Source: Sinorhizobium meliloti (GTDB taxonomy: Bacteria > Pseudomonadota > Alphaproteobacteria > Rhizobiales > Rhizobiaceae). Taken from it: a stretch of DNA of 32,000 nt. Numbering within the stretch: the stretch's first letter is position 1; each line of letters starts with the position of its first letter. The DNA lies in the NCBI RefSeq assembly GCF_017876815.1, contig NZ_JAGIOS010000001.1:1980001-2012000 (forward strand). Direction: 5' to 3'. Of the stretch, positions 13,011-32,000 are shown piece after piece. The notes under the pieces are model-generated. The model had not been told where the DNA came from. It saw only the letters and a program-made list of their open reading frames with translations, and made no database searches. The position numbers and the translations under genes are program-made.

Positions 13011-13073
13011 TGTCGGCGCAGGGAAAGCGGCGACGCGGCAATTGCCGCGGGTCTCGAAATTGAGAAAGTACTG

Positions 13074-17629: not shown

Positions 17630-18013
17630 ATGACCGCAATCGAGCCTGAAGAACAGGAAGACAAGCCGCTTGACCCCGCGATGGAGAACGTCCGTCGCAA
17701 GATGGTGCGCCTGCAACTCGTCTCGGCCGGCGTGATGCTGGTGATGCTTATGGCCGTCCTCGGGGCGATTGTCTACAAGCTGACCCGCACGGACGGAAGC
17801 GCCGAGGCGGCGCAGCCGGCCCTGAGCGTGCCCGGCGATGCGCCGGTAAGTGCCATTGCGGCGCTGCCGGCCGGCTTCTCGGTGAGCAATGTGGCGCTTT
17901 CCGGCTCGCAGCTCGTCTTCTACGGCAGTTTGCCCGGTGCGGAGCCGCGTGCGATCGTTTTCGACATCAAGGCTGGCCGCATCGTCGCCGACGTCACGGT
18001 CAGGACCAACTGA
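17630..18013 (+). CDS. Hypothetical single-pass membrane protein (127 aa)
   Basis: ATG 17630, one TM (LVSAGVMLVMLMAVLGAIVY). The stop lies 4 nt before the downstream methyltransferase start, suggesting co-transcription. Confidence 0.55.
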   Translation: MTAIEPEEQEDKPLDPAMENVRRKMVRLQLVSAGVMLVMLMAVLGAIVYKLTRTDGSAEAAQPALSVPGDAPVSAIAALPAGFSVSNVALSGSQLVFYGSLPGAEPRAIVFDIKAGRIVADVTVRTN

Positions 18014-18017
18014 CGAC

Positions 18018-18845
18018 ATGACTGAGCCTCTCCTTCGCATCGACGACCCGGCGGACCCGCGCATAGCCGGGTTCCTGTCGATCAAGGAGCGCGATCTGAC
18101 GGGACGGCAGGGCCGCTTCATCGCCGAGGGGACCGTGGTGCTCAGGATGCTTGCGGCTGCGCATCGCGAAGGGCGCGGCATCGCAGCCGAGGCGATCCTG
18201 CTCCTCGAGAGCCGGGTCGCCGGCGTCGCGGAGCTGCTCGCGCAGTTTCCGCCGGACGTTCCGGTCTATGTGGCCGCCAGCCGCGTCTTCGACGCGATCG
18301 CCGGGTTCAACATGCATCGCGGCGTGCTGGCGCTCGGCCGGCGCGATGCCGCGCCGGGCCGCGATGCGCTGATTGCAGGCTTACCGCAGTCGAGCCTCGT
18401 GCTCGCCGCCTGCGGCATATCGAACCACGACAATATGGGATCGCTCTTTCGCAACGCTGCGGCCTTCGGGGTCGATGCGGTGCTGATGGACTCGACGAGC
18501 TGCGATCCGATGTACCGCAAGGCAATCCGCGTATCCGTGGGGTCGGTGCTGACGCTGCCCTTCGCGCGCGAGGGTACGGCGGCGGAGCTGATCGAACGTC
18601 TTCAGACGGCAGGTTTCGTCGTCTGGGGTTTGTCCCCGCGCGGCACCGCCGACATCAACGCAATCCCGCCGGCGCCGCGCACCGCATTGCTTGTCGGCAC
18701 CGAAGGCGAGGGACTGCCCGAAACGATCCTTTCGCAAATCCGCACGGCCCGCATCCGGCAGCGGCCCGGCCTGGACAGCCTCAACGTGGCGATGGCGGCG
18801 GGCATAGCGCTGCATCAGGTTGCAAGCATCAACGGCAGGATTTGA
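18018..18845 (+). CDS. SpoU/TrmH-family RNA 2'-O-methyltransferase
   Basis: C-terminal SPOUT motifs LLVGTEGEGLPETIL and LDSLNVAMAAGIALH. Start at ATG 18018 (MTEPLLRIDD...). Confidence 0.85.
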   Translation: MTEPLLRIDDPADPRIAGFLSIKERDLTGRQGRFIAEGTVVLRMLAAAHREGRGIAAEAILLLESRVAGVAELLAQFPPDVPVYVAASRVFDAIAGFNMHRGVLALGRRDAAPGRDALIAGLPQSSLVLAACGISNHDNMGSLFRNAAAFGVDAVLMDSTSCDPMYRKAIRVSVGSVLTLPFAREGTAAELIERLQTAGFVVWGLSPRGTADINAIPPAPRTALLVGTEGEGLPETILSQIRTARIRQRPGLDSLNVAMAAGIALHQVASINGRI

Positions 18846-20306: not shown

Positions 20307-20909
20307 TCAGAAGGGGTTCCAGGTCGGCTGCTGCGTCAGCTTGAGATAGCCGACATTGATACCGAGCCTCGCGCCGATGCCGGTGCGGATCGGCACCACC
20401 ACGACATGTTCGTCCGTCAGCACCGTCATGCCGACGCCGGCGACCACGTAAGCCGAACCGGAGACGCCGCCGAAGCGCTTGTAAAGAGCCGGGACGCTCG
20501 GCAGATTGTAGACGAGCATCATGGCGCGGCTGCCCTGGCCGCCCCAGTCGAGCCCGAGTGACGGGCCCTGCCAGAAGACGCTGTGCTGCCCCACATTCTT
20601 GGTATGGAGCTCGCCCTCGCCATAGGTGACGCCGGCGATGAAGGCACCGGATCCTTCCTGGCCGAGGATATAGCCGTTCGGCAGGCCGTAGCGCTCGAAG
20701 GCGCGCTCGACGACCTTGGCAAGGCCCCCGGACGTTTCGCCGAAGAAACCATGACCGGCGTCGACGATCTCCTGCATCGTGTACTGGCTTGAGTTTTGCG
20801 ATTGCGCCTGTGCGCCAGAGGTGCCGGCGATCAGGGTGCCGGCCACCAGGGCCATCATGGTCACAATAGCGCGGACAGCCATCAGGGTGGTCTTCATCAT
20901 CGGCTGCAT
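20307..20909 (-). CDS. DUF1134-family periplasmic protein (EipA-like)
   Basis: 200 aa with signal peptide MQPMMKTTLMAVRAIVTMMALVAGTLIAGTSGAQA. GGAGGA lies 4 nt upstream of ATG 20909. The Gly-rich body resembles the DUF1134 family. The longest-ORF extension to 21158 was rejected. Confidence 0.8.
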   Translation of the reverse strand: MQPMMKTTLMAVRAIVTMMALVAGTLIAGTSGAQAQSQNSSQYTMQEIVDAGHGFFGETSGGLAKVVERAFERYGLPNGYILGQEGSGAFIAGVTYGEGELHTKNVGQHSVFWQGPSLGLDWGGQGSRAMMLVYNLPSVPALYKRFGGVSGSAYVVAGVGMTVLTDEHVVVVPIRTGIGARLGINVGYLKLTQQPTWNPF

Positions 20910-21151
20910 CGTTTCCTCCGTCGGGGCGCGAAAGCGGCTCGCGCGCCGGCCGTCATGACCGGCTCTTCCATCGGCTGCGCCGTCGGTGCCGGCACGGGCC
21001 ATTTTCACAAGCATGCGCGCGGGACGCACTAGCATTTGGAACGAGTGCACCTTATCGGCTTCCAGGAACCCACCTGAAATCGGGGTGCTCCGACAATTTG
21101 AACGGATCATCTTAACAATCGGTTTACCAAATGTTTTTCGAAGTCGTTTAG

Positions 21152-21166
21152 TTAACAAAGGGTTAA
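21152..21166 (-). promoter_or_regulatory. Candidate CtrA box upstream of the DUF1134 gene
   Basis: On the gene strand it reads TTAAccctttgTTAAc. It lies ~243 nt upstream of ATG 20909 and 5 bp from the first prophage-edge repeat. Confidence 0.45.
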
Positions 21167-21170
21167 GGGC

Positions 21171-21206
21171 GGGTTATCCAAGGGTTATCCAAATGGGGTT
21201 ATCCAA
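21171..21206. repeat. Three tandem GGGTTATCCAA direct repeats (candidate integrase arm-type sites, attL P'-arm-like)
   Basis: Exact 11-mers at 21171-21181, 21182-21192 and 21196-21206, ending 4 nt before the integrase stop codon. Degenerate copies at 21121-21130 and 21160-21169. Confidence 0.8.
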
Positions 21207-21210
21207 GCGC

Positions 21211-22383
21211 CTACTTTACAATCTTCAAGCCGGGCGCCTTTCTCCTTTTTGCCTCGCCAGCGGCGACCTTGTCCATGGCATTGATTGCTAGATGCACTTG
21301 CCGCGCCTTGCGCGAATATAGCTCTGCCTGCGATGGGCTGTTATGGCCGAGAACGTCCATCATTTCGCGCGTTGATGCTCCAGTTTCCGCCATTCTCATG
21401 CCGAGGGCTTTTCTCAGGCCATGGCACGAAAGGGCGAGGTCGCCAGCAAGCCGTCCGGCGGGCAAGCCAGCAGCGCGCACCCATTGAATCATCCGGCCCG
21501 ATAGAGTGCGAGGGCTGTAACCCCGCTTCCAAGATGAAAGCAATACAAAGTCAGTGTCGCGCGAAAGCGGCGCAAGTTCGTGCGCTAGTTCGGGTGTGAT
21601 TGGCAGGAAAACCGTCTGCCCTTTTTTCTTTTTCCGGCCCTTGAAAGGCAGGATTTCGAAGCCCTCGACGGTGCGCTCTTCCCCGTTGATTATCATGCGT
21701 TTTGTCGTCAGATGATCCCATCGCAGGCGAGCGATATCGGAGGCGCGCAGGCCAAGCCAGACCCCCAATGCGAAGGCAACGCGAGGCGTGCTGCCGAGGG
21801 GATAGAACTGTTCAAACTGATCACATTGCTCGGGCGTCCAAGTCGCGTGGCCGTCTGTATCGTGCCGATAGTCCTTCATCATCTTGTAGGTGGGGTCAGC
21901 TGTTATCCACTCGTTTTCGATGCCGATCATGATCAGTTTCGAAATGCAGATCAGCATGATTTTCTGCATGGTCGGCGTGTCTTTGTGGAACTGCAGCCAT
22001 TGTTTAACGTGCGTGCGCTTGACCTCTGCAAGGGGGCCGTCGCCGATGATTTCACTGCCCGCCTTGCGCGTCAGCAGCGTCTCGATCAGGCGCCCGTAGC
22101 GGTCGCGCGTCGAGAAATCGAGTTTCAGCCATGCGCCCGACTCTTTCAGCAGTTTGTAAGCATGCTTGATACTTCGCGGGCGGACGCCGCCGGCCAGCAA
22201 AATCACGTTGGTCTTTGCGGGGCGCCCGCCGACAATCGCCTCATAGGCGGCGTCGAATTCGGCTGAGTGGGGCTCGCCGGGAATAACGGTGTCCTTGTGA
22301 CCGGCCTTTCGGAACCGCCAGCGAGTTTTGCCGTGGCGATCTGTGAAGGATGAAACATGGGGATAATCGGGATGCTTAGGCAT
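21211..22383 (-). CDS. int: Tyrosine-type phage integrase
   Basis: C-terminal catalytic signature: R in LRASDIARLRW, HGLRK (HxxR), LGHNSPSQAELYSRKA (H...Y). Start at ATG 22383 (MPKHPDYP...) with GGAGGA 8 nt upstream. Confidence 0.92.
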   Translation of the reverse strand: MPKHPDYPHVSSFTDRHGKTRWRFRKAGHKDTVIPGEPHSAEFDAAYEAIVGGRPAKTNVILLAGGVRPRSIKHAYKLLKESGAWLKLDFSTRDRYGRLIETLLTRKAGSEIIGDGPLAEVKRTHVKQWLQFHKDTPTMQKIMLICISKLIMIGIENEWITADPTYKMMKDYRHDTDGHATWTPEQCDQFEQFYPLGSTPRVAFALGVWLGLRASDIARLRWDHLTTKRMIINGEERTVEGFEILPFKGRKKKKGQTVFLPITPELAHELAPLSRDTDFVLLSSWKRGYSPRTLSGRMIQWVRAAGLPAGRLAGDLALSCHGLRKALGMRMAETGASTREMMDVLGHNSPSQAELYSRKARQVHLAINAMDKVAAGEAKRRKAPGLKIVK

Positions 22384-22594
22384 CGTCGCGTCCTCCAAGC
22401 GGCCACGGCCTCGATATCGCTTGCATGGCAAGCAAAAGCGTTTTCGGATAGCGGAAGCCGCGCCCCTGCTCGATCCCCTGTAGAGTGCGGGTGGGGAGCC
22501 CGAGCAGGCGGGCGGCGGTGTCGGCGGAAAGCCTCTTTCCGCGCCATTCCTTGACGGCGCTGGCTAGGGCTTCTGGAGTCATCTGGTCTTGCAT
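22376..22594 (-). CDS. Small HTH (XRE-like) DNA-binding protein overlapping the int start
   Basis: 72 aa from ATG 22594 (MQDQMTPEAL...). HTH-like LSADTAARLLGLPTRTLQGIEQG. Its stop overlaps the int start by 8 nt. Confidence 0.6.
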   Translation of the reverse strand: MQDQMTPEALASAVKEWRGKRLSADTAARLLGLPTRTLQGIEQGRGFRYPKTLLLAMQAISRPWPLGGRDDA

Positions 22595-22675
22595 CTTGCG
22601 GTTCCTTTCCCCTTGATTGGGGACCGCACTCTGCGCATAGTGCGCAAAACGTTGCAACGCAGGGTGCGCACTCTC

Positions 22676-22915
22676 CTATGAAAAAGCGCGATCAAAATAA
22701 TTGCCGCGCTCTTGATGAGGCAATTCGCTGAAAGCGATGTCCAATTCCACGCGATCCCATACCCGCCGGCCATCGATCGCGCGGGCTTTCGGCATCCGGC
22801 GGTCCCTTACCATCTCGTCAAACTTTGTCAGGCCGACGCCGATATAGCGCGCGGCCTCTTCCCGGCTTAGGCCGCGCGGCGGGTAATAGATCGTGTCGGA
22901 TTTCGGGGCGGTCAT
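22676..22915 (-). CDS. xis: AlpA/excisionase-family HTH protein (candidate Xis)
   Basis: 79 aa; LSREEAARYIGVGLTKFDEMVRDRRMPKARAIDGRRVWDRVELD matches the AlpA/HTH_17 pattern. Positioned next to int. Confidence 0.68.
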   Translation of the reverse strand: MTAPKSDTIYYPPRGLSREEAARYIGVGLTKFDEMVRDRRMPKARAIDGRRVWDRVELDIAFSELPHQERGNYFDRAFS

Positions 22916-23109
22916 AGCGGCAACCTCGTCTGCAATTCCTCCTCATCGGCCCACCGCGAATAGTCGTCCGCGATTGCCTGCATAACCTCGATTTCATGCT
23001 CGGCGGATTGCTGCCGCATGCGGCCCTCGGCGACGAGCCGGGAATAGACCCACCGCCGCTGCTTGACCTCGCGGGCGGCGCAATTTGCTTTTTCGCGGTA
23101 GCTGATCAT
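22912..23109 (-). CDS. Hypothetical phage protein (65 aa)
   Basis: ATG 23109, with ATGA overlaps to both neighbours. No recognisable motif. Confidence 0.55.
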   Translation of the reverse strand: MISYREKANCAAREVKQRRWVYSRLVAEGRMRQQSAEHEIEVMQAIADDYSRWADEEELQTRLPL

Positions 23110-23378
23110 TGGCGTGTCATCTCCCTATCCGGGTGCCCCTCTGGGCCGAAAAGGATCATCTCGTTGACGTGGATCAGATCGCCGACGTTCTTGATAAGGG
23201 CGTCGAGCATCTTCTTGCGCATGCCCGGCGACCATCCGGCAATGAAGGTGGCGACCAGATCGGCAAGCACGACGCTCTGGACCTCCGGCGGGTGGCCGGC
23301 CAAGTGCGGCTTAATCGCGTCAACGATCAGATTGACCTGATCGCAGATTTCCTTTGCCTCTTCCTTCGTGACGACCAT
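23106..23378 (-). CDS. Hypothetical phage protein (90 aa)
   Basis: Start at ATG 23378 (MVVTKEEAKE...) preceded by AAAGGAGAA. ATGA overlap with the downstream gene. Confidence 0.55.
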   Translation of the reverse strand: MVVTKEEAKEICDQVNLIVDAIKPHLAGHPPEVQSVVLADLVATFIAGWSPGMRKKMLDALIKNVGDLIHVNEMILFGPEGHPDREMTRQ

Positions 23379-24144
23379 TGCCGTTCTCCTTTGGCTTGGC
23401 GGCCAGCGCATGGAGATAGCGGGTCGCCTCCGGGCCTTTGATATCGCCCCGAATTAGCTGTTCCGCCGTTCGGCAGCACGCCTCAACAAAGGGGATATCG
23501 TCGGGCAACTGTTGCACCCACGCCGCCTTGACGGTCGGGGCGAGGTTTTCGAGCTTCCACTGCGCCGAGGTTTCCTCATCGGTCGCGAATTGCAGAAACT
23601 TCGCGATGCATTCGTCCCGATGCGGGGTGGCAGTGGCGGCGGGGTTGCCTTCGGGATTGGGGGATTCGCCACCGCCGCTGCCTGCGTCGGCCTCGCTTGA
23701 GGATGAGGCCGGCGGTTCATCGTCGCCGGGATCGGGCGACTCATTGGAAAGCGTCTCGGGATCGATGCCAGTCACGCGCTGCAAATACAGCATGGCGTCT
23801 TCGTAGAATTCCTCAAATTCGGGCTCGGTCAGATCATTCAGGCTGCGCGGGTACATGATCCGCACGTTGCCGGCCTTGCCGCCGTCGTCCATCAGCCCGA
23901 ACGTCCGCTTTATCGCGTTCGCGGCGTCTTTAACGGTGCGCCAGGGCGTGTTGCAATTCCTGATAACGAGTCCGAGGATCGCCCAAAATTTGCGGCGCTT
24001 CTTGCTTTGCGGATCGGTGATCGGCTGGACGAACATCGTCGTGCCATGCCGGTACGACTCGAGCCTTTCGGCGGAAAAGGCATCGGCCGGCGTAAGCTTG
24101 CCGGGGCCGACTGTCAGTCGGAGCGGGGGGATATCGTTCTTCAT
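23320..24144 (-). CDS. Phage protein, N-terminal DUF1367-like domain plus acidic linker and C-terminal domain (274 aa)
   Basis: Start at ATG 24144 (MKNDIPPLRL...). The segment KKRRKFWAILGLVIRN...MYPRSLNDLTEPEFEEFYEDAM resembles lambdoid DUF1367 proteins (recollection, not searched). The upstream 110 codons of the longest ORF were rejected. Confidence 0.55.
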   Translation of the reverse strand: MKNDIPPLRLTVGPGKLTPADAFSAERLESYRHGTTMFVQPITDPQSKKRRKFWAILGLVIRNCNTPWRTVKDAANAIKRTFGLMDDGGKAGNVRIMYPRSLNDLTEPEFEEFYEDAMLYLQRVTGIDPETLSNESPDPGDDEPPASSSSEADAGSGGGESPNPEGNPAATATPHRDECIAKFLQFATDEETSAQWKLENLAPTVKAAWVQQLPDDIPFVEACCRTAEQLIRGDIKGPEATRYLHALAAKPKENGNGRHEGRGKGNLRSGQSDR

Positions 24145-24311
24145 TGCTCTATTCCCATCAATCGCCGTGAGAACCGCGAATAGGTCGCGCCCATCCTCTG
24201 GTAGATCAGGCGGTCGGCATCGCGGTCGCTTTCCAGCGCCTTTTCGTAATTGAGGGCGGCGAGGCGCTGGTATTGCTCGGCACGCCACAATTGCTCCTCG
24301 TCCTTCGTCAT
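24141..24311 (-). CDS. Unlisted small ORF (56 aa) coupled on both sides by ATGA overlaps
   Basis: Hand translation: MTKDEEQLWRAEQYQRLAALNYEKALESDRDADRLIYQRMGATYSRFSRRLMGIEQ*. ATG 24311 overlaps the stop of 24308..24958, and its TGA overlaps ATG 24144. It fills an otherwise 163-nt gap. Confidence 0.5.
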   Translation of the reverse strand: MTKDEEQLWRAEQYQRLAALNYEKALESDRDADRLIYQRMGATYSRFSRRLMGIEQ

Positions 24312-24958
24312 GCTGGCACCCGATCGGCCAGCAGGGCGTCAAAGCGTTTCCGCATGCGCTTGAGTTCCGACATCGCCCCGCGCCCGTCGCGCTTGGCGAC
24401 CTCCTCCAGATGGGGAATGCCCGAGGCGATGGACGCCTCGATTTCGGCGCGGGTCGCGGCGCGTCCGCCTGCATAGAATTCGAGCCCTTCCGGCTCGCCG
24501 ACGAAGAACAGGACGCCGTTTGAAACCTGCATCAGGCTATAGAAGCGCGTGACCCAAATCGCGGTCACGCCGGGATTGCGCTCGATCATGATCCCGGCGA
24601 CCTCGCGGGCCTCGGGCAGATCGCGCTCGCGGCGCTTGGCGTTGGGATTGGAAAGAAAGGGGCATGCCTTGGCGGCAAAGACCGCGCAGTCGTAATGCGA
24701 TGGTGGCTCGGAAGATACCCGGTTTATGCAGCACATCGGGCCGAGGGCGAACGCCTTGCGGGTGCCCATGACATCGCCGCAAATCCAGCAAAGGTTCCGC
24801 CTGACGCTTGCGGCCATGTGGTCGTGGCTGACGAGGCGAAAATCCGGTTCGCCTTTCTTGTCCACGACGCCGACAAACTTCGGGATGGGGAAGCCTCGCT
24901 TGTCGCGAGGCAACCGGGCGATGCGGGAGGGCATATGCTTGAATTCGCGCCGGCTCAT
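24308..24958 (-). CDS. Phage protein with conserved Cys/His motif (216 aa), function unknown
   Basis: Start at ATG 24958 (MSRREFKH...) with GGGAGGTG upstream. Motif LCWICG-x18-CC-x11-PPSHYDC-x8-CP suggests metal binding. Confidence 0.68.
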   Translation of the reverse strand: MSRREFKHMPSRIARLPRDKRGFPIPKFVGVVDKKGEPDFRLVSHDHMAASVRRNLCWICGDVMGTRKAFALGPMCCINRVSSEPPSHYDCAVFAAKACPFLSNPNAKRRERDLPEAREVAGIMIERNPGVTAIWVTRFYSLMQVSNGVLFFVGEPEGLEFYAGGRAATRAEIEASIASGIPHLEEVAKRDGRGAMSELKRMRKRFDALLADRVPA

Positions 24959-25233
24959 TTTTTCAGCACCTCCCTTGCGCGGACGAGGGCGGCGCCGAAC
25001 GTCCATGGCTTGGGCTGCGCTACTCGGTTCCAGCCGGGCGGCAAATCGCGCGCGTCCAGCCCATAGCGGCGCAGATGCGCCCGTTCGGAGTCGACGAACG
25101 CATGGGGGAAGCCACGGCAGCGGAGATATTGCGCCAGCAAGCACTCGCGGCAGCTGATGTAATCATAATATTGCTCCGGGTCCTGCGCGGCCAACCAATC
25201 GATCAGGGCGGCATTGTCGAACGTCGGTCTCAT
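24955..25233 (-). CDS. Hypothetical phage protein (92 aa)
   Basis: Start at ATG 25233 (MRPTFDNAAL...) with AAGGAGGA upstream. ATGA overlaps with recT and with the downstream gene. Confidence 0.6.
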   Translation of the reverse strand: MRPTFDNAALIDWLAAQDPEQYYDYISCRECLLAQYLRCRGFPHAFVDSERAHLRRYGLDARDLPPGWNRVAQPKPWTFGAALVRAREVLKK

Positions 25234-26180
25234 TTCGGATCCTCCTTTTCCATCTCGCGCAGGCGGCGCGCTTTGATCTTCTGGCAAATCTCTTGATCAA
25301 GGTCGGAGCCTTCGAACCGCGCCATGGGGTCAAGCTCGGTCCAGACTTCCTCCACGCTCGCGGCGTCTTTCGCCTCGGCCAGCCGGTCGCGCAGTTCGTC
25401 AAAGAATTCCGCGTCGGGGATTGCGTCGGCATCGACGCCGCCCATTTCCTCGCGATCGGGGTCGGGCTCGTCATCAAGGGGGGAGGCCGAGTCTACCGGC
25501 GGCTGCCCGGTCCCTGACTCGACCTCCGTCGCGTCACCCTGCGCCGTCTGGATTTTTTCACCAGCAGGGCTCTGCTGACCTATGCGCGGCGCGCGCGGCG
25601 CTGGCGGCAATAGGGCAATGTTCTGGTCTTCGGCGATCCGCCGGCCCTCGTCCTCGTCGTAGATGCCGGCAAAGCCGAAGGCATAGCGGGCGCATTGCAT
25701 CAGCGCCTTGTGGCGCAACATGCGGTTCTTCATTTTCCATGGATCGGTGTCGCGCCAGCACTCGGCGAGGTATTCGGTGACGGCGGTCGGGTGGCTTCGG
25801 TCCTTGCGATGCATGATGCACGTACAAGAAATCGGATCGCCGTTGGCATCGCGCTCCCACGTGAATTCAAAGCCATCGCAAGCCGGATGCGAATTGACGA
25901 GGTTGATCCACCCGTCAATCGAGACGATCGGCACGACGCCGCCGCCGCGCTTCGGATAGGCGAAAATCTCGCGCGTCAGCGGGTTAAGGTCGTATTTCTT
26001 GGCGACCAGTAGGAACGCGGCAAATTCCTCGCGGGTCAGCGGCCGGAATTGCTCGCCCTTTTTTGGCGTCGGCGAGCATTGCGCCCGCACCGTCATTTCG
26101 AAGGCATCGGCCTCCATGCCGAATTGCCCGGCCATATCGATCAGCACCGACCGGCGTGGCGCTTTTGCAAGCTGGTTCAT
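25230..26180 (-). CDS. recT: RecT/Bet-family single-strand annealing recombinase
   Basis: 316 aa; KKYDLNPLTREIFAYP...GGVVPIVSIDGWINL...MLRHKALMQCARYAFG matches the RecT/phage Bet core. Acidic C-terminal tail. Confidence 0.85.
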   Translation of the reverse strand: MNQLAKAPRRSVLIDMAGQFGMEADAFEMTVRAQCSPTPKKGEQFRPLTREEFAAFLLVAKKYDLNPLTREIFAYPKRGGGVVPIVSIDGWINLVNSHPACDGFEFTWERDANGDPISCTCIMHRKDRSHPTAVTEYLAECWRDTDPWKMKNRMLRHKALMQCARYAFGFAGIYDEDEGRRIAEDQNIALLPPAPRAPRIGQQSPAGEKIQTAQGDATEVESGTGQPPVDSASPLDDEPDPDREEMGGVDADAIPDAEFFDELRDRLAEAKDAASVEEVWTELDPMARFEGSDLDQEICQKIKARRLREMEKEDPK

Positions 26181-27178
26181 ACGACTGTCCTTTCCTCGAC
26201 AATCTCCATTCCAGGCACCGCGACGTTGGCTTTCGCCAAGCGCGCGCAGGCCTTATCGGCGGCGTCCTTGATTTCTTGGCTGTCCTTGATCGAGGCGAGG
26301 AAGGTGTCGTTATCCACGATCCGGCCGACGCGGCGGGTGCGCAGCGATGTCTTCGCGCCAGTCCGCCCGGCTTGCGGGCGCCTGTATTCCGCCTCGCGTT
26401 CGGCCTCTTTCGCGGCGGCCAGCTTTTCGCCGGCCTCGCGCTCGGCCTCGGGCGTCTTTGCCTTGCTCAACGTTTCCTCGGCCTCGCGGCGCAAGCGCTC
26501 GGCTTCGGCGGCGGCGGCCCGCACGCGCTCCTTTTCAATCCGGTCCTGCTCTTGGAGCCACGCAAGCTGATGGCGTTTCAGGAGCTTCTGCAGCCCCTCG
26601 GGCTCCTCGCGCAATTCGCGCCATTTGGAGTCGATCTTCCGGGCCTTGACGAGAACCGGCGCCTTTTCATCGGCGTGCAGCTTGTCGGCCCGATTGGCGA
26701 TATCTTTGAGCCGCCGCGCCCATATGGCCGCCTTGTCGGCTTCCTCCTTGCTGGCAATCGGTTTTTTCAGGAAGGCGAGGGCCTGTTCCCTTTCGCCGAC
26801 CCATTCGATCCGCAGAGCCTCGTATTCATCAGCCCCGGCGCCGCTGTTGTGGCCAAAGCCGGCCGCTGGCCGCTCGGGCTCGTCGGCCCATCCGTTGCCG
26901 GCCTTGGCGCGGTCAAACGCTTCCTCGCTGATAGGCTGCTTGACCGCCCACAGAAACAAATCCTCGATCTGCTCGCGATCGACGGGGCGGCCGGATCGCG
27001 TCGCGTACCAATCGCCGTCAGCGCCCCGCCAAAACTGCACCGGCTCCCAATCGCCGTCCTTGCGGCGGACTCGGAAATAGCCGGTCCAAGGCTCGCCTGG
27101 ATGAATGGTGAGTTTTCCGGTGCCAATCTTGCTCGGATCGGCGAGCGCGGCCTGCCATTTATCCCAATCGTTTTGCAC
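26177..27178 (-). CDS. Phage protein with central coiled coil (333 aa), partner of recT, function unknown
   Basis: Proposed GTG start at 27178 (VQNDWDKWQ...) with GGGAGGA 5 nt upstream. ATGA overlap with recT. The central E/A/R/K-rich coiled coil may be Gp157-like (weak). Confidence 0.62.
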   Translation of the reverse strand: MQNDWDKWQAALADPSKIGTGKLTIHPGEPWTGYFRVRRKDGDWEPVQFWRGADGDWYATRSGRPVDREQIEDLFLWAVKQPISEEAFDRAKAGNGWADEPERPAAGFGHNSGAGADEYEALRIEWVGEREQALAFLKKPIASKEEADKAAIWARRLKDIANRADKLHADEKAPVLVKARKIDSKWRELREEPEGLQKLLKRHQLAWLQEQDRIEKERVRAAAAEAERLRREAEETLSKAKTPEAEREAGEKLAAAKEAEREAEYRRPQAGRTGAKTSLRTRRVGRIVDNDTFLASIKDSQEIKDAADKACARLAKANVAVPGMEIVEERTVV

Positions 27179-27366
27179 GAAGTCCTCCCTTTGATGGAGA
27201 TCTTTATGAAAACAATAATTGCACATACCCGCAAGAGGCGTGTAAATGATATTTGCAAAATGGGAGGAATCTCTTCGCTGGCTAAGGTCGAACGAGACCT
27301 GCGCGGAGAATCGCCCCCGAAGCGCTTCTGGCGGCATCGGGCGGCGTCAAGATATCCAAAGGTGTA

Positions 27367-27810
27367 TTATCGATCGGCTCGCGCGATGGACCGGGCGGCC
27401 TGCTGCTTGGCGCGCATAATGTCGATATCGGCGTCGGTCAGCGTCATCGAGATCGGCGCGCGCCGTGGGAAATGAAGGTGGTAATTGAATTGCTCGGCGG
27501 CCGGGTTGAACCGGACATGGCTCCTCTGCACGTCCGGGCGCGCGGCGCGCCGGATCACCTCGGCGAATTGCCGGGCCGGGTAGGGGGCATTTCGAACGCT
27601 GGAGATCATCGCTGCGAGGGCTTGGCTGGCCTCATGCTGGAGCCAAGCGGCGTCGTCAAACGATCGGATCAAAACGGCCATTCGCCGGCCGTCCTCCGTT
27701 TGCAGGTGGGCGACGAAATGATCGCCCACAGCAACGACGTGAAAATTTGTCAGGGCCGGGGGAAGTCCATCCTCTGAATCAATTGCTGACGATACCAAGA
27801 GTCTACCCAT
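27367..27810 (-). CDS. Hypothetical phage protein (147 aa), first gene after the repressor gene
   Basis: ATG 27810 lies 16 nt downstream of the XRE gene stop. Coding-like codon usage. No HEXXH or other catalytic motif seen. Confidence 0.6.
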   Translation of the reverse strand: MGRLLVSSAIDSEDGLPPALTNFHVVAVGDHFVAHLQTEDGRRMAVLIRSFDDAAWLQHEASQALAAMISSVRNAPYPARQFAEVIRRAARPDVQRSHVRFNPAAEQFNYHLHFPRRAPISMTLTDADIDIMRAKQQAARSIARADR

Positions 27811-27826
27811 AACCGCATGAATCCTC

Positions 27827-28360
27827 TCATAAAGTTGGTTTCCGCCGCTTTGAATATTCCCCCGCTTTAGTCACCTCGGGCAAGTCAAGACCCGAGTCCT
27901 TGTCGCCCCCTGGCTCCTTCCGTCCTAATGCTCGCAGCCGGTTGTCAATCATGGTCTGAAAGTGCTCATAGAGCGTTTCGTATTCCTCCGGCGGCAGCAG
28001 TTCCAGCTTCGCATCGATGCTCGGCTTTGCGATCGGGGTGCCTTTCCCCTCGGCAAGCCAGACCCACGAAATGTTGAATTCCTTGGCGATCATCATCAGG
28101 TGATCGCGCTTCATCCCGACGCCGATCTCCCAATTTCCTACGGCGCCTCGGGTCACCCCAAGGCGTTCAGCGAAATCAGATTGTCGGTGATATCCGAGAA
28201 TTTCTTTCCTGAGAAATCTGATGCGTTTGCCAAGCTGGATAAGCTCTGCATGCTTCTCAGCCTCCCTTTTTTTTCCCGCCGCTAGTTCAGCGCGGCTCCC
28301 TACTTTCCTTTTCGCACTCGTCACAGGTGCATTTCCCCCACCTAGGTTCAACCATGCCAC
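27827..28360 (-). CDS. XRE-family HTH repressor (CI-like position) lacking an S24 peptidase domain
   Basis: HTH FLRKEILGYHRQSDFAERLGVTRGAVGNWEIG. Divergent from the Cro-like gene. The start is uncertain: GTG 28360 (no SD, possibly leaderless) or an internal GTG (codon 13) preceded by GGGGGA. Confidence 0.8.
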   Translation of the reverse strand: MAWLNLGGGNAPVTSAKRKVGSRAELAAGKKREAEKHAELIQLGKRIRFLRKEILGYHRQSDFAERLGVTRGAVGNWEIGVGMKRDHLMMIAKEFNISWVWLAEGKGTPIAKPSIDAKLELLPPEEYETLYEHFQTMIDNRLRALGRKEPGGDKDSGLDLPEVTKAGEYSKRRKPTL

Positions 28361-28436
28361 ACGCCAGCTTAACTTGTCACCGTGAAATTCTCAAAATGTC
28401 TTGATCCCTCGTGAAAATGTTGTTTACATTTGTAGC
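28361..28436. promoter_or_regulatory. Divergent immunity-switch region with repeated CGTGAAA(A/T)T motif and candidate promoters
   Basis: CGTGAAATT at 28381-28389 and CGTGAAAAT at 28410-28418. Dyad TCAC-C-GTGA at 28377-28385. Rightward TTGATC-N18-TACATT (28401-28430). Leftward TTGAGA-N17-TAAGCT (complement of 28366-28394). Confidence 0.5.
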
Positions 28437-28685
28437 ATGAACGTGAGCAAAGAAAATTTATCCACTGATCCTCGCGCCATTGCATGTGAGGCCGCCAAAA
28501 CGCGCGCAGGCGGGGCGAAGTTCCTTGCCCAACGGCTCGGCGTTTCGCGCCAGCTGGTCCATGCCTGGAAAATCATCCCGGCAAAGCACGTGCTGCGCGT
28601 CGAAAGGGAAACCGGCATTTCCTGCCACATTCTGCGCCCCGACGTATTCGGCCCGGCGCCAGCGAATAAGGAGGCGGCGGAATAG
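28437..28685 (+). CDS. Cro/YdaS-family HTH protein
   Basis: 82 aa from ATG 28437. GGAKFLAQRLGVSRQLVHAWKIIPAKHVLRVERETGISCHILRPDVF fits the Cro/YdaS pattern. No SD upstream, so possibly leaderless. Confidence 0.72.
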   Translation: MNVSKENLSTDPRAIACEAAKTRAGGAKFLAQRLGVSRQLVHAWKIIPAKHVLRVERETGISCHILRPDVFGPAPANKEAAE

Positions 28686-28727
28686 CCGCCTGATGTGTCC
28701 GCCGACCATGCCCCGGCCGGCGGGAAA

Positions 28728-28798
28728 GGCCACCGCGCCCCCACTCTCCCGCCGTGGGGCTTTCCTTCCCTCCACGGCGCCCTCGCGACGCGGTGGCC
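28728..28798 (+). other. Nested GC-rich inverted repeat (structured RNA, terminator or antiterminator candidate)
   Basis: Outer arms GGCCACCGCG (28728-28737) / CGCGGTGGCC (28789-28798). Inner arms CGCCGTGG (28750-28757) / CCACGGCG (28772-28779). No T-run. Confidence 0.4.
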
Positions 28799-28824
28799 GC
28801 CCCTAACCCAAGAGGAGGCCCCCA

Positions 28825-29409
28825 ATGCCCGCCACCATCGGCGATAATTCCAAGGACCTTACGCCAGCCGAGCAAAAGGCCCTCTACATGCACCACTTCG
28901 GCGCCATCCTGAAACAAACCGAGATATGCAAAGCCGAGAACGCCGAGCGCCTAAAGCTTCGCAAGCAGGCCAAGGCGGACGGCATCGTCCTCGCCGACAT
29001 CGATTTCGGCCTCCGCTGCGCCCAGATCGAGGACCCTTCCGTCATCGTCAATGAGCAGAAGCGGCGCGCCGAGATCGGCGGCTACTTCGCACTTCCGATC
29101 GGCGCTCAATCAGAATTCGACTTCGACCGCGAGCGGGCCGTCGATCGCGCATGGCGGGAGGGCGAAAGGGCTGGATATGAAGCCGTCAACGCCGACACCA
29201 ACCCCTATGACGAGAATTCGGCACAGGGCCGGGCATGGGCGAAGGGCTGGAAAGAGGCGCAGGCGGAAATGGCCGCTAACCTACAGTCCGCCATGGAAAA
29301 GAAGCAGGCCGATCGCGTGCAGAAGGCCGCCGATCTGGCCGCCGCTGATGATGGCGAGAACGATCCCGAGGACGACCACGAGGCCGATCCGGCCGAAGCC
29401 GCCGAATAG
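28825..29409 (+). CDS. Phage protein with Rmf/CrpP-like C-terminal segment and possible GapR(DUF2312)-like N-terminal segment
   Basis: AAGAGGAGG upstream of ATG 28825. ERAGYEAVNADTNPYDENSAQGRAWAKGWKEAQ resembles the RMF motif (GY.AG...CPY.....W..GW.EA). The N-terminal ...LRKQAKADGIVLADIDFGLR...YFALPIG loosely parallels GapR. Acidic tail. Confidence 0.6.
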   Translation: MPATIGDNSKDLTPAEQKALYMHHFGAILKQTEICKAENAERLKLRKQAKADGIVLADIDFGLRCAQIEDPSVIVNEQKRRAEIGGYFALPIGAQSEFDFDRERAVDRAWREGERAGYEAVNADTNPYDENSAQGRAWAKGWKEAQAEMAANLQSAMEKKQADRVQKAADLAAADDGENDPEDDHEADPAEAAE

Positions 29410-29422
29410 GGGGGCCGCCGCC

Positions 29423-29869
29423 ATGCAACCCGAGAAAGTAATCTGGAAAGAGGCCGACCGGGACAAGGTGGCCGAGATGCTCAAAAAGGGCTGGTCGGCC
29501 GCAAAGATCGGCCAAGCGATGGGGATTTCCCGAGGCGCGGCCATCGGCCGGATTTTCCGCAATGACCGATTAAGGACGCTGATGAAGCGCCCGCCCAAAG
29601 CCGCAAGCCCGAGGAGGTGGCCGGTGAAGAAAGGCGCGCGCTCGACCGGGAAAGAGAACCCGGCGCCGGTCCTCCAGCTGCCGCCGCCACCCATGCGGCT
29701 TGTGCCGCTAGCCGAGTTGAAGCGCGGCGATTGCCATTGGCCGGCGAGCCCCCATGGGGCCGCCCCGGATCAGCATCTATTTTGCGGCGCCGGCACCCGC
29801 AAGGGCGAGAAATGGTGCCCCTATCATCAGCTGATCGGCTATCAGCCTCGGGCGCCGCGCCATGGGTAA
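29423..29869 (+). CDS. GcrA-family cell-cycle regulator homolog (phage-encoded)
   Basis: 149 aa from ATG 29423. N-terminal KKGWSAAKIGQAMGISRGAAIGRIFRN and C-terminal GDCHWP...LFCG...WCPYHQLIGYQP match the two conserved GcrA segments. The longest-ORF start 29051 was rejected. Confidence 0.8.
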   Translation: MQPEKVIWKEADRDKVAEMLKKGWSAAKIGQAMGISRGAAIGRIFRNDRLRTLMKRPPKAASPRRWPVKKGARSTGKENPAPVLQLPPPPMRLVPLAELKRGDCHWPASPHGAAPDQHLFCGAGTRKGEKWCPYHQLIGYQPRAPRHG

Positions 29870-30416
29870 GCGTTCCGACTTCCCCCGGCGCAAGGCGGAC
29901 GATTACGCCACGCCCTTGAAGGGGGTCACGCCAGTGCTCCCGCATCTTCGCGCCGAGGGGATCGTGACCTTTGTCGAACCGTGCGCGGGCGCCGGCAATC
30001 TGGTTGCGCATCTATGCCGCTTTGGCTTCCTTTGCGCTTTTGCCCGCGATCTGCGCGACGGCTTCGACGCCCTGACCTGCGATCCAAACACTTTCCAAGG
30101 CGCCGACGCCGTCGTGACGAACCCGCCGTGGACGCGGGCGGCGCTCCATCCGATGATTGAGCGCTTTTCCGATATCCTGCCGACATGGCTCCTGTTTGAT
30201 GCCGATTGGGCGCACACCAAGCAAGCGGCGCCCTACCTCGATTATTGCTCCCACATCGTCTCTGTCGGCCGGCTCAAGTGGATACCTGACACGAAGCACC
30301 AAGCCAAGGATTCCTGTGCGTGGCACCGCTTCGACCGCCGGCATTCTGGCGGCCCGCACTTCATCGGCCGCCCCTCAAATGAAATCGCAAAAAGTTACGT
30401 GGAGGCGGCGCAATGA
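29862..30416 (+). CDS. Compact SAM-dependent DNA methyltransferase, N6-adenine (amino-MTase) type, orphan
   Basis: 184 aa; motif I FVEPCAGAGN, motif IV TNPPW. 8-nt overlap with the GcrA-like gene and ATGA overlap with the next gene. No restriction partner seen. Confidence 0.78.
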   Translation: MGKRSDFPRRKADDYATPLKGVTPVLPHLRAEGIVTFVEPCAGAGNLVAHLCRFGFLCAFARDLRDGFDALTCDPNTFQGADAVVTNPPWTRAALHPMIERFSDILPTWLLFDADWAHTKQAAPYLDYCSHIVSVGRLKWIPDTKHQAKDSCAWHRFDRRHSGGPHFIGRPSNEIAKSYVEAAQ

Positions 30417-31078
30417 CTGCGGAACTCGCCCGATACGATGCCATGTGCCGGGCCATCGATGAGGCCTACCAAATCGATGAGGTCAAGGATATCCGGGACA
30501 AGGCGCTGGCGTTGGAGGTCTATTCCCGGCAAGCGAAAAACATCGAAGCGGAACGCCGCGCGTGTGAAATCCGGCTCCGGGCCGAGCGCAAGGCCGGCGA
30601 GCTGCGGCGCCAAGAGGAAAAAAGCAGGGGCGGGCGACCTGCAAAAAACCCTCCCGACCAAGCCGGGAAGGTTTCGACCAATGCGGAGCGCCGCGCCGAA
30701 CTCGGGATTTCAAAAGATCAGGACGAGCGCTGGCAAAAGCTCGCTGCGGTTCCCAAAGAGGAATTCGAGGCGGCACTCGCCGAGCCGGGCGTGCCGACCG
30801 CGAACAGCATCATCGCGAAGATTGCTGAAAAGCGATCGAAGCCCATGGACAGCGCCGCCCTATGGCTTTGGGGCCGCATGAAGGACTTCGAACGGAACGG
30901 AATTCTGGCCGACGATCCCGACCGCGTTTGGGCGGAAATGGCGGATCACATGCGGGCAGATATGCGCCGGCTGGTACCGCGCGTCTGTGAATGGCTCAAC
31001 CAATTGGAGGCGTCAAATGCCGAACAAGGGAACATCGGAGGCCGCGAGGCTGCGCGAAATTCTGTCCGCCGTGTATGA
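30413..31078 (+). CDS. Hypothetical phage protein (221 aa), basic coiled N-terminal half
   Basis: GGAGG upstream of ATG 30413. The N-terminus LARYDAMCRAIDEAYQIDEVKDIRDKALALEVYSRQAKN is a pattern I recall in many phage and plasmid proteins (not searched). Confidence 0.62.
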   Translation: MTAELARYDAMCRAIDEAYQIDEVKDIRDKALALEVYSRQAKNIEAERRACEIRLRAERKAGELRRQEEKSRGGRPAKNPPDQAGKVSTNAERRAELGISKDQDERWQKLAAVPKEEFEAALAEPGVPTANSIIAKIAEKRSKPMDSAALWLWGRMKDFERNGILADDPDRVWAEMADHMRADMRRLVPRVCEWLNQLEASNAEQGNIGGREAARNSVRRV

Positions 31079-31451
31079 GCGGCGGAAAGATGAAGCCCGC
31101 GTGAGCCCGTCGTGGCTGGCGACCGAGGCAATGACCGAGCTTGACCCGGATCGGGAGGCGCCGCCTCTGGTCTATCTCGGTTGCCACTTGGAGCTACGCC
31201 AGATCGCGCGGGAATTCTGCCGAAAGCGCTTCGAGCCGGAAGATGATGGGGAGGCGCATGATCTTTTCCCCGATCTACAGGCCCGCTATCCAACGGCGCG
31301 CTCATCCAAGGATGACCCCGAATATGTGAAACTCGAATGTCTGAATCGCGACGACATTGCCTTTAACGTCAACCGGCTTCGGTCTGAGGCCGCGCGCAAG
31401 CTGGCACACGCCGACGCTTTGGAAGAATACGGCGAGTTGCGGGCGGCCTGA
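31017..31451 (+). CDS. Hypothetical phage protein (144 aa)
   Basis: Start at ATG 31017 (MPNKGTSEAA...) with GGAGG 7 nt upstream. Overlaps the previous ORF by 62 nt. Confidence 0.58.
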   Translation: MPNKGTSEAARLREILSAVYERRKDEARVSPSWLATEAMTELDPDREAPPLVYLGCHLELRQIAREFCRKRFEPEDDGEAHDLFPDLQARYPTARSSKDDPEYVKLECLNRDDIAFNVNRLRSEAARKLAHADALEEYGELRAA

Positions 31452-31453
31452 TA

Positions 31454-32000
31454 ATGCTGATCCTCGGCCTCGACCAGTCCATAACACGCACCGGGTTCGC
31501 GCTCTACGAATACCCCGGTGACGAGCGAGACATGCGCTGCGGCTCGTTTTCGTGCAAGGACGCGGGCGATCCCGAGGAAAAATGCGAACTGTTCGCGCGC
31601 CAGTTCAAGCGGTTGGTCGGGCCGAAAGATCGCCGCCCCGATTTCATCGTGTGGGAGCGCGCCCGGCGGCGCATCTCGGCCTATCCCAAGAAGCCTAACC
31701 CCGATCTGCTCGGGCTCGGCGGCGACGATCCCGCCATCTGGACCGTCAACGCCGATCAGCTGCTCTTGCCGGAAATCCAAGGCATCATCCGGGGCGAGGC
31801 AATCAGCTACCGCATTCCGCATGAGTCGGTCCCGCCGGCCACATGGCGCGCCGCGATCTATGGCAAGGGCGGCGGCAAGCTGTCGCGCGCCGACGCCAAG
31901 GCGCAAGCGAGGGCCTATTGCAAGGCGCTTCGGATCGCGGCCGGCAACGAGGACGAGGCCGAGGCCGCATGCATCGCCAGATGGGCCGCGACCTGCTCGC
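31454..32000 (+). CDS. RuvC-like Holliday-junction resolvase (5' part, runs off window)
   Basis: Not in the ORF track because it has no stop in the window. Hand translation MLILGLDQSITRTGFALYEY...NEDEAEAACIARWAA shows RuvC-fold motifs (ILGxDxS..TG N-terminus, later D/E-x-AEA-x-xIA) with no in-frame stop to 32000. The opposite ORF 31286..31906 is a shadow. Confidence 0.62.
   Translation, partial: MLILGLDQSITRTGFALYEYPGDERDMRCGSFSCKDAGDPEEKCELFARQFKRLVGPKDRRPDFIVWERARRRISAYPKKPNPDLLGLGGDDPAIWTVNADQLLLPEIQGIIRGEAISYRIPHESVPPATWRAAIYGKGGGKLSRADAKAQARAYCKALRIAAGNEDEAEAACIARWAATCS

Follow-up and report, generated by a model that had tools for sequence, protein, structure and literature searches.

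Does a prophage of Sinorhizobium meliloti carry its own version of the GcrA/CcrM module? The textbook bacterial case of a transcriptional reader coupled to a writer of DNA methylation is GcrA with CcrM, a module linked to the cell cycle; GcrA of Caulobacter is a sigma70-associated cell-cycle regulator that prefers promoters with CcrM-methylated GANTC. The question is raised by a stretch of 32,000 nt (S. meliloti assembly GCF_017876815.1, contig NZ_JAGIOS010000001.1, positions 1,980,001–2,012,000), called the window below, where a prophage gene for a GcrA-like protein overlaps a gene for a small methyltransferase. The preliminary description of this DNA had proposed that the two form a reader–writer pair, and this stands as a well-founded hypothesis, because members of the methyltransferase family methylate GANTC (PMC3925955). 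The pairing recurs across lineages. The GcrA-like and methyltransferase families are preferentially linked in phages and prophages, in an association that is facultative, and in the window the pair sits in a CI-repressed early-right operon. Our preferred reading, to which the comparisons of sequence below lend about an even chance, is that the pair would be a copy of the host GcrA/CcrM module that is carried by the phage, runs independently of the cell cycle and has a non-homologous, miniaturised writer. The two genes and their parts are as follows.

29423–29869, plus strand: GcrA-family gene, 148 aa, putative reader of N6-methyladenine (m6A) in GANTC and putative sigma70 cofactor (PF07750, E = 2.3e-13)
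29444–29563, plus strand: N-terminal helix-turn-helix (HTH) DNA-binding domain, residues 8–47 (profile match to 5yiu)
29696–29848, plus strand: C-terminal CCCH zinc-finger domain, residues 92–142, equivalent of the sigma70-interacting domain (profile match to 5yix)
29862–29869, plus strand: 8-nt overlap of the GcrA-like stop with the methyltransferase start, ATGGGTAA (read from the sequence)
29862–30416, plus strand: methyltransferase gene, 184 aa, putative GANTC writer (phrog_799, E = 2e-27)
29970–29999, plus strand: S-adenosylmethionine-binding motif I, FVEPCAGAGN (E39, P40, C41 and G43 invariant in the family alignment A1)
30117–30131, plus strand: catalytic motif IV, TNPPW (N87, P89 and W90 invariant in A1)

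Candidate reader and candidate writer

The GcrA-like open reading frame (ORF) runs from the ATG at 29423 to the TAA at 29867–29869 and contains the two segments by which it had been recognised, KKGWSAAKIGQAMGISRGAAIGRIFRN in the N-terminal part and GDCHWP...LFCG...WCPYH...GYQP in the C-terminal part; the length first given, 149 aa, counts the stop codon, and the protein has 148 residues. The Pfam GcrA profile, which had been named as the check to make, matches above its cut-off (51.2 bits against 26.9), with residues 8–145 aligned to model positions 3–150 of 155, and a 99%-identical protein is called 'GcrA family cell cycle regulator [Sinorhizobium medicae]' at NCBI. At 20.1 bits, the window protein falls far below the cut-off of 280 for the host-GcrA equivalog NF050816 and is thus a diverged phage paralogue, not the host orthologue. 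A search of PDB sequences with the single GcrA-like sequence gave nothing useful, and Caulobacter GcrA was reached only with a profile built from 20 phage and prophage homologues (alignment A2). This profile matched Caulobacter crescentus GcrA over its full length (7ye1_G, E = 9e-34), the GcrA DNA-binding domain (5yiu, E = 8e-15) and the sigma-interacting domain (5yix, E = 4e-12).

For single residues, we used the functional map of Caulobacter GcrA from Wu et al. 2018 (PMC5887438). Caulobacter W3, R33, I37, G38 and R42 are retained in the window protein as W8, R37, I41, G42 and R46. Two base- and methyl-contact positions are replaced in the window's Sinorhizobium clade (N34 by G38 and H41 by F45), and the N34 equivalent is retained in other phage GcrA-like homologues. 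The zinc ligands C104, C121, C132 and H135, which correspond to C118, C133, C143 and H146 in Caulobacter, are invariant in A2, spaced C-x16-C-x10-C-x2-H here and C-x14-C-x9-C-x2-H in Caulobacter. Mutating W120, G129, F130, F132, Y142 or Y151 abolishes sigma70 binding in Caulobacter (PMC5887438); W106, F120 and Y140 are identical to W120, F132 and Y151, and W131 replaces Y142 conservatively, so that four of these six residues are kept or conservatively replaced, while the loop equivalent to G129/F130 is two residues longer and allows no confident alignment. An AF2 (AlphaFold2) model made from a 7-sequence alignment has a pLDDT (predicted local distance difference test) of 66.5 and consists of a three-helix N-terminal domain (pLDDT ~82), a low-confidence or disordered linker and a small C-terminal domain; with this low-confidence model, Foldseek returned generic HTH matches only and did not recognise GcrA. 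Judged by these alignments, the protein keeps the GcrA architecture, in which an HTH domain and a CCCH zinc domain are joined by a disordered linker, and retains most of the sigma70-contact residues in the zinc domain. Its likeness to Caulobacter GcrA extends to domain order, the zinc finger, R33, I37, G38, R42 and most sigma70-contact residues, whereas the changes at N34 and H41, a shorter linker and the loss of a C-terminal basic patch set it apart. By analogy, we infer that it would bind region 2 of sigma70 and prefer m6A-modified GANTC.

The second ORF (ATG at 29862, TGA at 30414–30416) encodes 184 aa. Both motifs reported at first are present at the positions listed above, and in A1 the motif order is X (DxYxTP), I (EPCxGxG) and IV (NPPW), with D13 and Y15 also invariant. 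Comparison with methyltransferase families, likewise proposed earlier, gave no match in Pfam, none of significance in NCBIfam and none among PDB sequences, but placed the protein in phrog_799, 'DNA methyltransferase', in PHROGs. Like the Pfam GcrA match of its neighbour, this match lies well outside what chance would give. Its 5494 homologues in a 90%-identity clustered database (1207 clusters at 50% identity) are all unnamed or 'hypothetical'. They are stand-alone proteins of ~173 aa, with an invariant MGKRS N terminus and 33 invariant columns. No separate target-recognition domain is present, and the AF2 model is a single Rossmann-type domain (pLDDT 86.8). Its best Foldseek matches are METTL5, M.BseCI, HsdM/type I M subunits, CamA and BpuSI (E ~1e-4, TM-score 0.5–0.6), and the fold is thus closest to that of N6-adenine methyltransferases. 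The N6-adenine type assigned in the preliminary description therefore agrees with phrog_799, with the AF2 and Foldseek results and with the 50% identity to GANTC-specific enzymes described next. Kinship with CcrM is another matter: PF01555, the profile of the beta-class CcrM family, gives no match, and motif I precedes motif IV, opposite to the beta-class order, so that the 184-aa gamma-class writer of the window is at most a functional analogue of Caulobacter CcrM, a beta-class enzyme, and not a homologue.

The link to GANTC comes from Paracoccus aminophilus. Three 179-aa prophage methyltransferases of this species confer protection from HinfI in E. coli, which means GANTC methylation (Dziewit et al. 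2014, PMC3925955). The published cloning primers encode MGKRSNF; the forward primer, searched in IMG/VR, retrieved three genes, and the reverse primers match them too. The genes so identified are JCM7686_1231, JCM7686_2255 and JCM7686_2934, whose proteins are 95–99% identical to one another, as published, and keep 31 of the 33 invariant family columns. The window methyltransferase is 49–50% identical to them over 170 of its 184 residues (E = 1.5e-56 to 3e-55). On this comparison, it is an orphan gamma-class N6-adenine enzyme of an experimentally anchored GANTC-methylase family, and at 50% identity its own specificity for GANTC is likely. The enzymes of P. aminophilus JCM 7686 belong to the same family (MGKRS, EPCAG, NPPW; ~175–185 aa) and are equally prophage-borne and orphan; they differ in their host, Rhodobacterales rather than Rhizobiaceae, and in that GANTC specificity was measured there, whereas it is predicted for the window enzyme. 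The family has no Pfam or NCBIfam model, and its proteins are named 'hypothetical protein' though members were characterised in 2014, so prophage-borne GANTC methylases are invisible in current annotations and in interpretations of methylomes.

Phage methylases of CcrM-like specificity are also known from sinorhizobia, namely PhiLM21_p027, Phi2LM21_p21 and Phi3LM21_p21 (Decewicz et al. 2017, PMC5537653). Like the window enzyme with its predicted GANTC specificity, they are orphan GANTC m6A enzymes of sinorhizobial phages or prophages, encoded beside replication modules; unlike it, Phi2LM21_p21 has 599 aa and Phi3LM21_p21 has 456 aa, and none has a reported link to GcrA. Kinship with PhiLM21_p027, the best known of the sinorhizobial phage GANTC methylases, was considered and rejected, as BLASTP found no similarity, and the link to GANTC therefore comes via the Paracoccus enzymes.

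Were the 184-aa protein to have another DNA specificity, or a substrate other than DNA, the logic of reader and writer would fail. We hold this to be very unlikely. It would fit an identity to the characterised enzymes of only 50%, a protein with no recognisable target-recognition domain and no Pfam model, and a best structural match, at modest TM-scores of ~0.55–0.60, to the rRNA m6A methyltransferase METTL5. It fits poorly with the unusual conservation of the family, in which the GANTC-specific enzymes share nearly all invariant columns, with the PHROGs class of DNA methyltransferase, and with a conserved GANTC-rich element that accompanies the pair in the window's clade (see below). Unrelated phage GANTC enzymes, moreover, show that this specificity has been selected repeatedly in alphaproteobacterial phages (PMC5537653).

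The 8-nt overlap described at first is present at 29862–29869, and the same two genes, overlapping to the same extent, were called independently in four related Sinorhizobium medicae assemblies, whose GcrA-like protein is 99–100% identical to that of the window. As for the single translational unit that had been suggested, the overlap is real but ordinary. A second overlap, of 4 nt (ATGA, 30413–30416), joins the methyltransferase stop to the start of the following ORF, and since start/stop overlaps are generic in a packed operon, the 8-nt overlap alone carries little weight. The start of this next gene, of 221 aa, is preceded by GGAGG 8 nt upstream. No Shine-Dalgarno-like motif precedes the methyltransferase ATG in the window's clade, and one is present in 8 of 12 other lineages with an adjacent pair. 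The missing motif is compatible, in this clade, with translational coupling to the GcrA-like gene.

Recurrence of the pairing

A census of the methyltransferase family covered 160 loci, half of them from genomes and half from viral contigs, which form 122 clusters at 90% identity. A GcrA-like gene lies on the same strand within 6 kb in 33 of the 122 clusters; it abuts or overlaps the methyltransferase gene on the upstream side in 11 (with 8-nt or 1-nt overlaps), lies within 2 kb upstream in 10, and is found elsewhere within 6 kb, reverse order included, in 12. Lineages with an abutting pair include Sinorhizobium, Gellertiella, Rhizobium and Brucella tritici, and both gene orders occur. As the immediate upstream neighbour, the GcrA-like gene is the commonest by far (30 of 155 loci, 26 distinct sequences); the families that follow count 7 (cell-wall hydrolase), 6, 5 (RusA) and 5 loci, and 67 neighbours are singletons. 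A scan of 2.9 million viral contigs found the methyltransferase family at 491 places, and marks it as mainly a phage and prophage family of Alphaproteobacteria.

The reverse census sampled 80 of 493 viral GcrA-like loci, with a narrow GcrA alignment as the seed, which biases the sample towards relatives of the methylase-linked GcrA-like gene. In these 80 loci, the gene after the GcrA-like gene belongs to the present methyltransferase family in 13, to MT-A70 in 2 and to the beta-class N6_N4 methylases in 1. That three unrelated adenine-methylase families follow GcrA-like genes argues for a functional association.

Could the two nevertheless be independent early genes that are neighbours through modular synteny? 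The methylase would then act alone, in replication control or in marking or protecting phage DNA, roles already suggested for phage GANTC methylases, and the GcrA-like protein would use the marks of host CcrM. Phage GcrA-like genes do commonly precede replication genes such as DUF1376 too, and each family is often found without the other; yet the gene upstream of the methyltransferase otherwise varies greatly, and GcrA-like genes are four times commoner there than any other family. Start/stop overlaps, being generic in an operon, are what such an arrangement would produce, but adjacency whichever gene comes first, across several genera, and the three unrelated methylase families after GcrA-like genes, are less readily explained by it. 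With ~490 places for each gene in 2.9 million viral contigs, a co-occurrence of 20–27% is likewise hard to obtain by chance. Independence of function has published support in that the P. aminophilus enzymes are active in E. coli, where no GcrA is present (PMC3925955), and in that Decewicz et al. (PMC5537653) describe phage GANTC methylase genes beside replication modules and do not mention GcrA. Taken together, we regard independence as doubtful, though with real weight.

Both kinds of gene were already known in phages, as the preliminary description had said. GcrA homologues were reported in phiCbK (gp222) and its relatives (Gill et al. 2012, PMC3556154) and in Agrobacterium phage Atu_ph08 (gp5; PMC6630229), and CcrM look-alikes by Dziewit et al. 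2014 and Decewicz et al. 2017. The phiCbK and Atu_ph08 homologues resemble the window protein as GcrA proteins of alphaproteobacterial phages, thought to manipulate cell-cycle-linked transcription; they differ in belonging to lytic or jumbo phages and in that no adjacent methylase has been described. In a full-text literature search, we found no description of a GcrA-like gene and a methylase as a linked cassette. One paper names facts on phage GcrA and on phage CcrM-like methylases side by side, for different phages, and the sinorhizobial virome paper on phage methylases (PMC5537653) never mentions GcrA. By this search, the recurrent pairing had not been pointed out before, in line with the earlier remark that it looked uncharacterised.

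Sequenced phage isolates gave no adjacent pair. A tblastn search of 50,697 phage records with the window GcrA-like protein gave no match, and the pair is absent at the four methyltransferase loci inspected in such records (PBC5, RHph_N3_2, Atu_ph08 and Mel-JY03). MD18 is the only phage record on both tblastn match lists, with its two genes ~90 kb apart. Two records labelled as cyanophages also appeared, Mel-JY03 (Microcystis), which has a methyltransferase of 51% identity, and Ssp-JY42 (Synechococcus), which has a GcrA-like gene; neither has the pair, and their host assignment may deserve a check.

GANTC sites and the proposed mechanism

GANTC is scarce on both sides of the prophage boundary, in agreement with published Ensifer data. 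The host part of the window (1–21200) has 24 sites against 116 expected, a four- to five-fold under-representation, and the prophage part (21201–32000) has 21 against 56 expected, which at 2.7-fold is less depleted than the host part. Two groupings of sites stand out, the second of them in relatives of the window's prophage.

27776–27898: cluster of four GANTC sites in 123 bp, where the cI-like gene has its 3′ end and its leftward neighbour begins (Poisson expectation 0.17; P ~0.008, corrected for the number of windows)
8639–8692 of the related locus L081, and 13008–13059 of the related locus L249: GANTC-rich element in a putative replisome-organizer-like gene

The cluster at 27776–27898 is only partly conserved in L249; an early-left promoter could be expected at this place. 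The GANTC-rich element is conserved in every Sinorhizobium-clade relative with the overlapping pair and reads ATGACTCCAGA(A/G)TCCAGA(A/G)TCCA...GAATC...GACTC, that is, a tandem (GANTCCA)3 and two further GANTC, with 4–6 sites in ~55 bp (Poisson P ~1e-4). It is located 1.5–4 kb downstream of the methyltransferase start, inside a gene weakly similar to replisome organizers. Conservation extends down to 67% methyltransferase identity, and the element persists where its flanks have diverged; its substitutions fall on the N of GANTC, and it uses AGA arginine codons, which are rare in the prophage (6/211). By analogy, the element is a candidate origin of replication or a candidate regulatory or methylation-sensitive site. 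Origins embedded in initiator genes are known from lambdoid phages.

In the host, the presence of CcrM and GcrA is confined to parts of the cell cycle. In our preferred reading, that of a phage-borne module independent of this cycle, the operon would be transcribed on induction or infection, and the methyltransferase, which in this clade has no ribosome-binding site of its own, would owe its translation to coupling with the GcrA-like gene. Through the action of the methylase, GANTC sites in phage DNA under replication, and also those in the host genome, would stay fully methylated at any stage of the host cycle. The GcrA-like protein would dock on sigma70 region 2 and stimulate transcription at methylated GANTC sites, and as a sigma70 cofactor it would drive phage transcription and possibly origin activation; in the close relatives, a candidate target is the tandem (GANTCCA)3-type element in the putative replication gene. 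The arrangement would share with Caulobacter GcrA/CcrM (PDB 5YIV, 5YIX, 7YE1) the combination of a GANTC adenine methylase with a GcrA-family protein. It differs in that the window genes are phage-encoded, adjacent and predicted to be co-transcribed, whereas those of Caulobacter are dispersed host genes.

Several observations weigh against this reading. On the side of the reader, the recognition helix is SRGAAIGRIFR in the window's clade and TRNAVIGKVHR in Caulobacter. N34 walls both methyl pockets of Caulobacter GcrA (PMC5887438), and with N34 and H41 both replaced, the window protein may read methyl groups differently or prefer another sequence. It also lacks, as noted above, the basic patch at the C terminus of Caulobacter GcrA. 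On the side of the writer, 50% identity leaves GANTC specificity likely rather than certain, and no GcrA-like gene lies within the stretch fetched around the P. aminophilus loci of the characterised enzymes. The linkage itself is partial, given that 89 of the 122 methyltransferase clusters (~73%) have no GcrA-like gene within 6 kb and that, at ~80% of the sampled phage GcrA-like loci, the gene that comes next does not encode a methylase. As to targets, the stretch from 27898 to 30309 is free of GANTC sites, and the promoter region of the early genes is therefore not an obvious one. The conserved element is known from relatives that are ~94% identical, and in the window's own prophage it is predicted to lie ~500 bp past the end of the window, near 32500; it overlaps coding sequence, and the link of its gene to replication is a weak match (E = 2.4e-4). 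GANTC clusters in other lineages are ambiguous, one of them being explained by a conserved DSGF peptide.

A more specific proposal, built on the same element, is that the pair could form a self-contained epigenetic switch on the phage's own origin: (GANTCCA)n would be methylated, and the GcrA-like protein would read it and bring in sigma70-RNA polymerase. Transcriptional activation of an origin is known for lambda. By such activation, replication and late expression would become independent of the stage of the host cycle, and the change of N34 to G would shift the preference of the reader from host promoters to the phage element. We consider this switch unlikely.

The same substitutions can be taken in another way, since the sigma70-contact residues and the zinc finger are kept while two DNA- and methyl-contact residues are changed. 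The pair could then be a device for host takeover, in which the methylase erases host hemimethylation and the GcrA-like protein, with its altered DNA-binding helix, occupies sigma70 and either mis-times the cell-cycle regulon of the host or competes with host GcrA, so that division would be blocked while replication functions of the host stayed active for the benefit of the phage. When CcrM is expressed constitutively, the cell cycle of Caulobacter and of rhizobia is disturbed, which counts in favour of this idea, and published speculation on the phiCbK GcrA homologue runs along similar lines. The results fit host and phage targets alike, however, and it is in phage DNA that the conserved GANTC-rich element is found. 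Host takeover is also compatible with the preferred reading and does not exclude it; as the explanation of the pair, we think it quite unlikely.

If the preferred reading holds, a phage with both functions in one early cassette would represent a minimal, portable and cell-cycle-independent version of GcrA/CcrM, and a natural experiment. With a readily expressed writer of 184 aa and a reader of 148 aa, it is a compact and directly testable system. The pair would further offer a test of how temperate phages of rhizobia, of Brucella relatives and of marine Alphaproteobacteria uncouple from the host cycle or impose on it.

GANTC clusters were also considered, and rejected, as a general companion of the pair: outside the Sinorhizobium clade they are enriched near it (11/45 versus 14/177, Fisher P = 0.006), but the enrichment comes from about four lineages only. 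Intergenic YGAKTCG sites at the end of L249 were set aside as uninformative, as they lie in uncalled sequence at the edge of the locus. In a second pair-carrying lineage, three overlapping GANTC (GAATCGATTCGACTC) occur at 2340–2360 of L014, a Gellertiella hungarica prophage, and at the equivalent places of L077 and L194, in an AT-rich intergenic region left of the repressor and ~40 nt upstream of a small gene.

The prophage and its early-right operon

The leftmost 21 kb of the window are host DNA, and the rest is a prophage that continues past the window end. Around the pair, the following genes define the locus.

17889–18845: SpoU methylase gene (host)
20307–21158: eipA (host)
21211–22431, minus strand: tyrosine integrase at the left prophage end (PF00589, E = 5e-15), with eipA and the SpoU methylase gene immediately to its left
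25230–26180, minus strand: RecT gene, leftward
26177–27337, minus strand: exonuclease-like gene, leftward
27827–28360, minus strand: CI-like HTH repressor, divergent from the early-right operon (HTH_3, Phage_CI_repr; phrog_4 and phrog_8, 'transcriptional repressor')
28401–28685, plus strand: Cro/YdaS-like first gene of the early-right operon (PF15943 YdaS_toxin, E = 1.7e-12; weak P22_Cro and CI matches; phrog_35)
28825–29409, plus strand: 194-aa gene with an RMF/CrpP-like C-terminal domain (PF04957, E = 3.4e-8)
30413–31078, plus strand: 221-aa gene, next in the operon after the methyltransferase (phrog_33995, E = 2.4e-15)
31454–32000, plus strand: start of a RuvC-like gene, an open frame to the window end (homologous ORF of L081: phrog_159 RuvC-like, E = 1.7e-10)

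The early-right location given in the preliminary description is borne out by the divergent CI-like repressor and the Cro/YdaS-like first gene. Downstream of the RuvC-like gene, the relatives have the replisome-organizer-like region that holds the GANTC-rich element (phrog_13246 'replisome organizer', E = 2.4e-4, matched by the same ORF of L081 as phrog_159). Among the neighbours of the pair, Pfam, PHROGs and PADLOC found no restriction or defence gene, as had been noted for restriction genes at the outset, and an anti-restriction or defence role of the pair was rejected because no defence system matched.

Of the two genes said to precede the pair, one Cro-like and one GapR/Rmf-like, the Cro-like gene and the RMF-like domain were found, and GapR was not. 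In the 194-aa ORF, PF04957 (RMF/CrpP) matches residues 102–148 at 33.9 bits (cut-off 27.9), with weak matches to solved RMF chains; PF10073 (GapR) gives no match even at E ≤ 0.1, and the N-terminal half is without any Pfam match. Identity as GapR was rejected on this ground and because BLASTP found no similarity to the true GapR-like protein of L014. Of the 63 loci with both genes, 23 have an RMF-like domain within 6 kb, and most of these belong to the Sinorhizobium clade. In L014, the true GapR-like gene (PF10073, E = 6e-32; 4765–5121) precedes an overlapping pair by two genes, and PBC5 also has a GapR-like gene (gp35). Such genes are found within 6 kb in ~10–14% of loci with or without the pair, and are no commoner near the pair than near either gene alone.

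At the integration site beside eipA, the window contains no tRNA gene. A ~94%-identical prophage type in other S. medicae strains occupies a different chromosomal site. These prophages (L249–L252) adjoin SIMPL/SnoaL genes, not eipA; their integrase is different or disrupted, and they contain a BrnT toxin gene.

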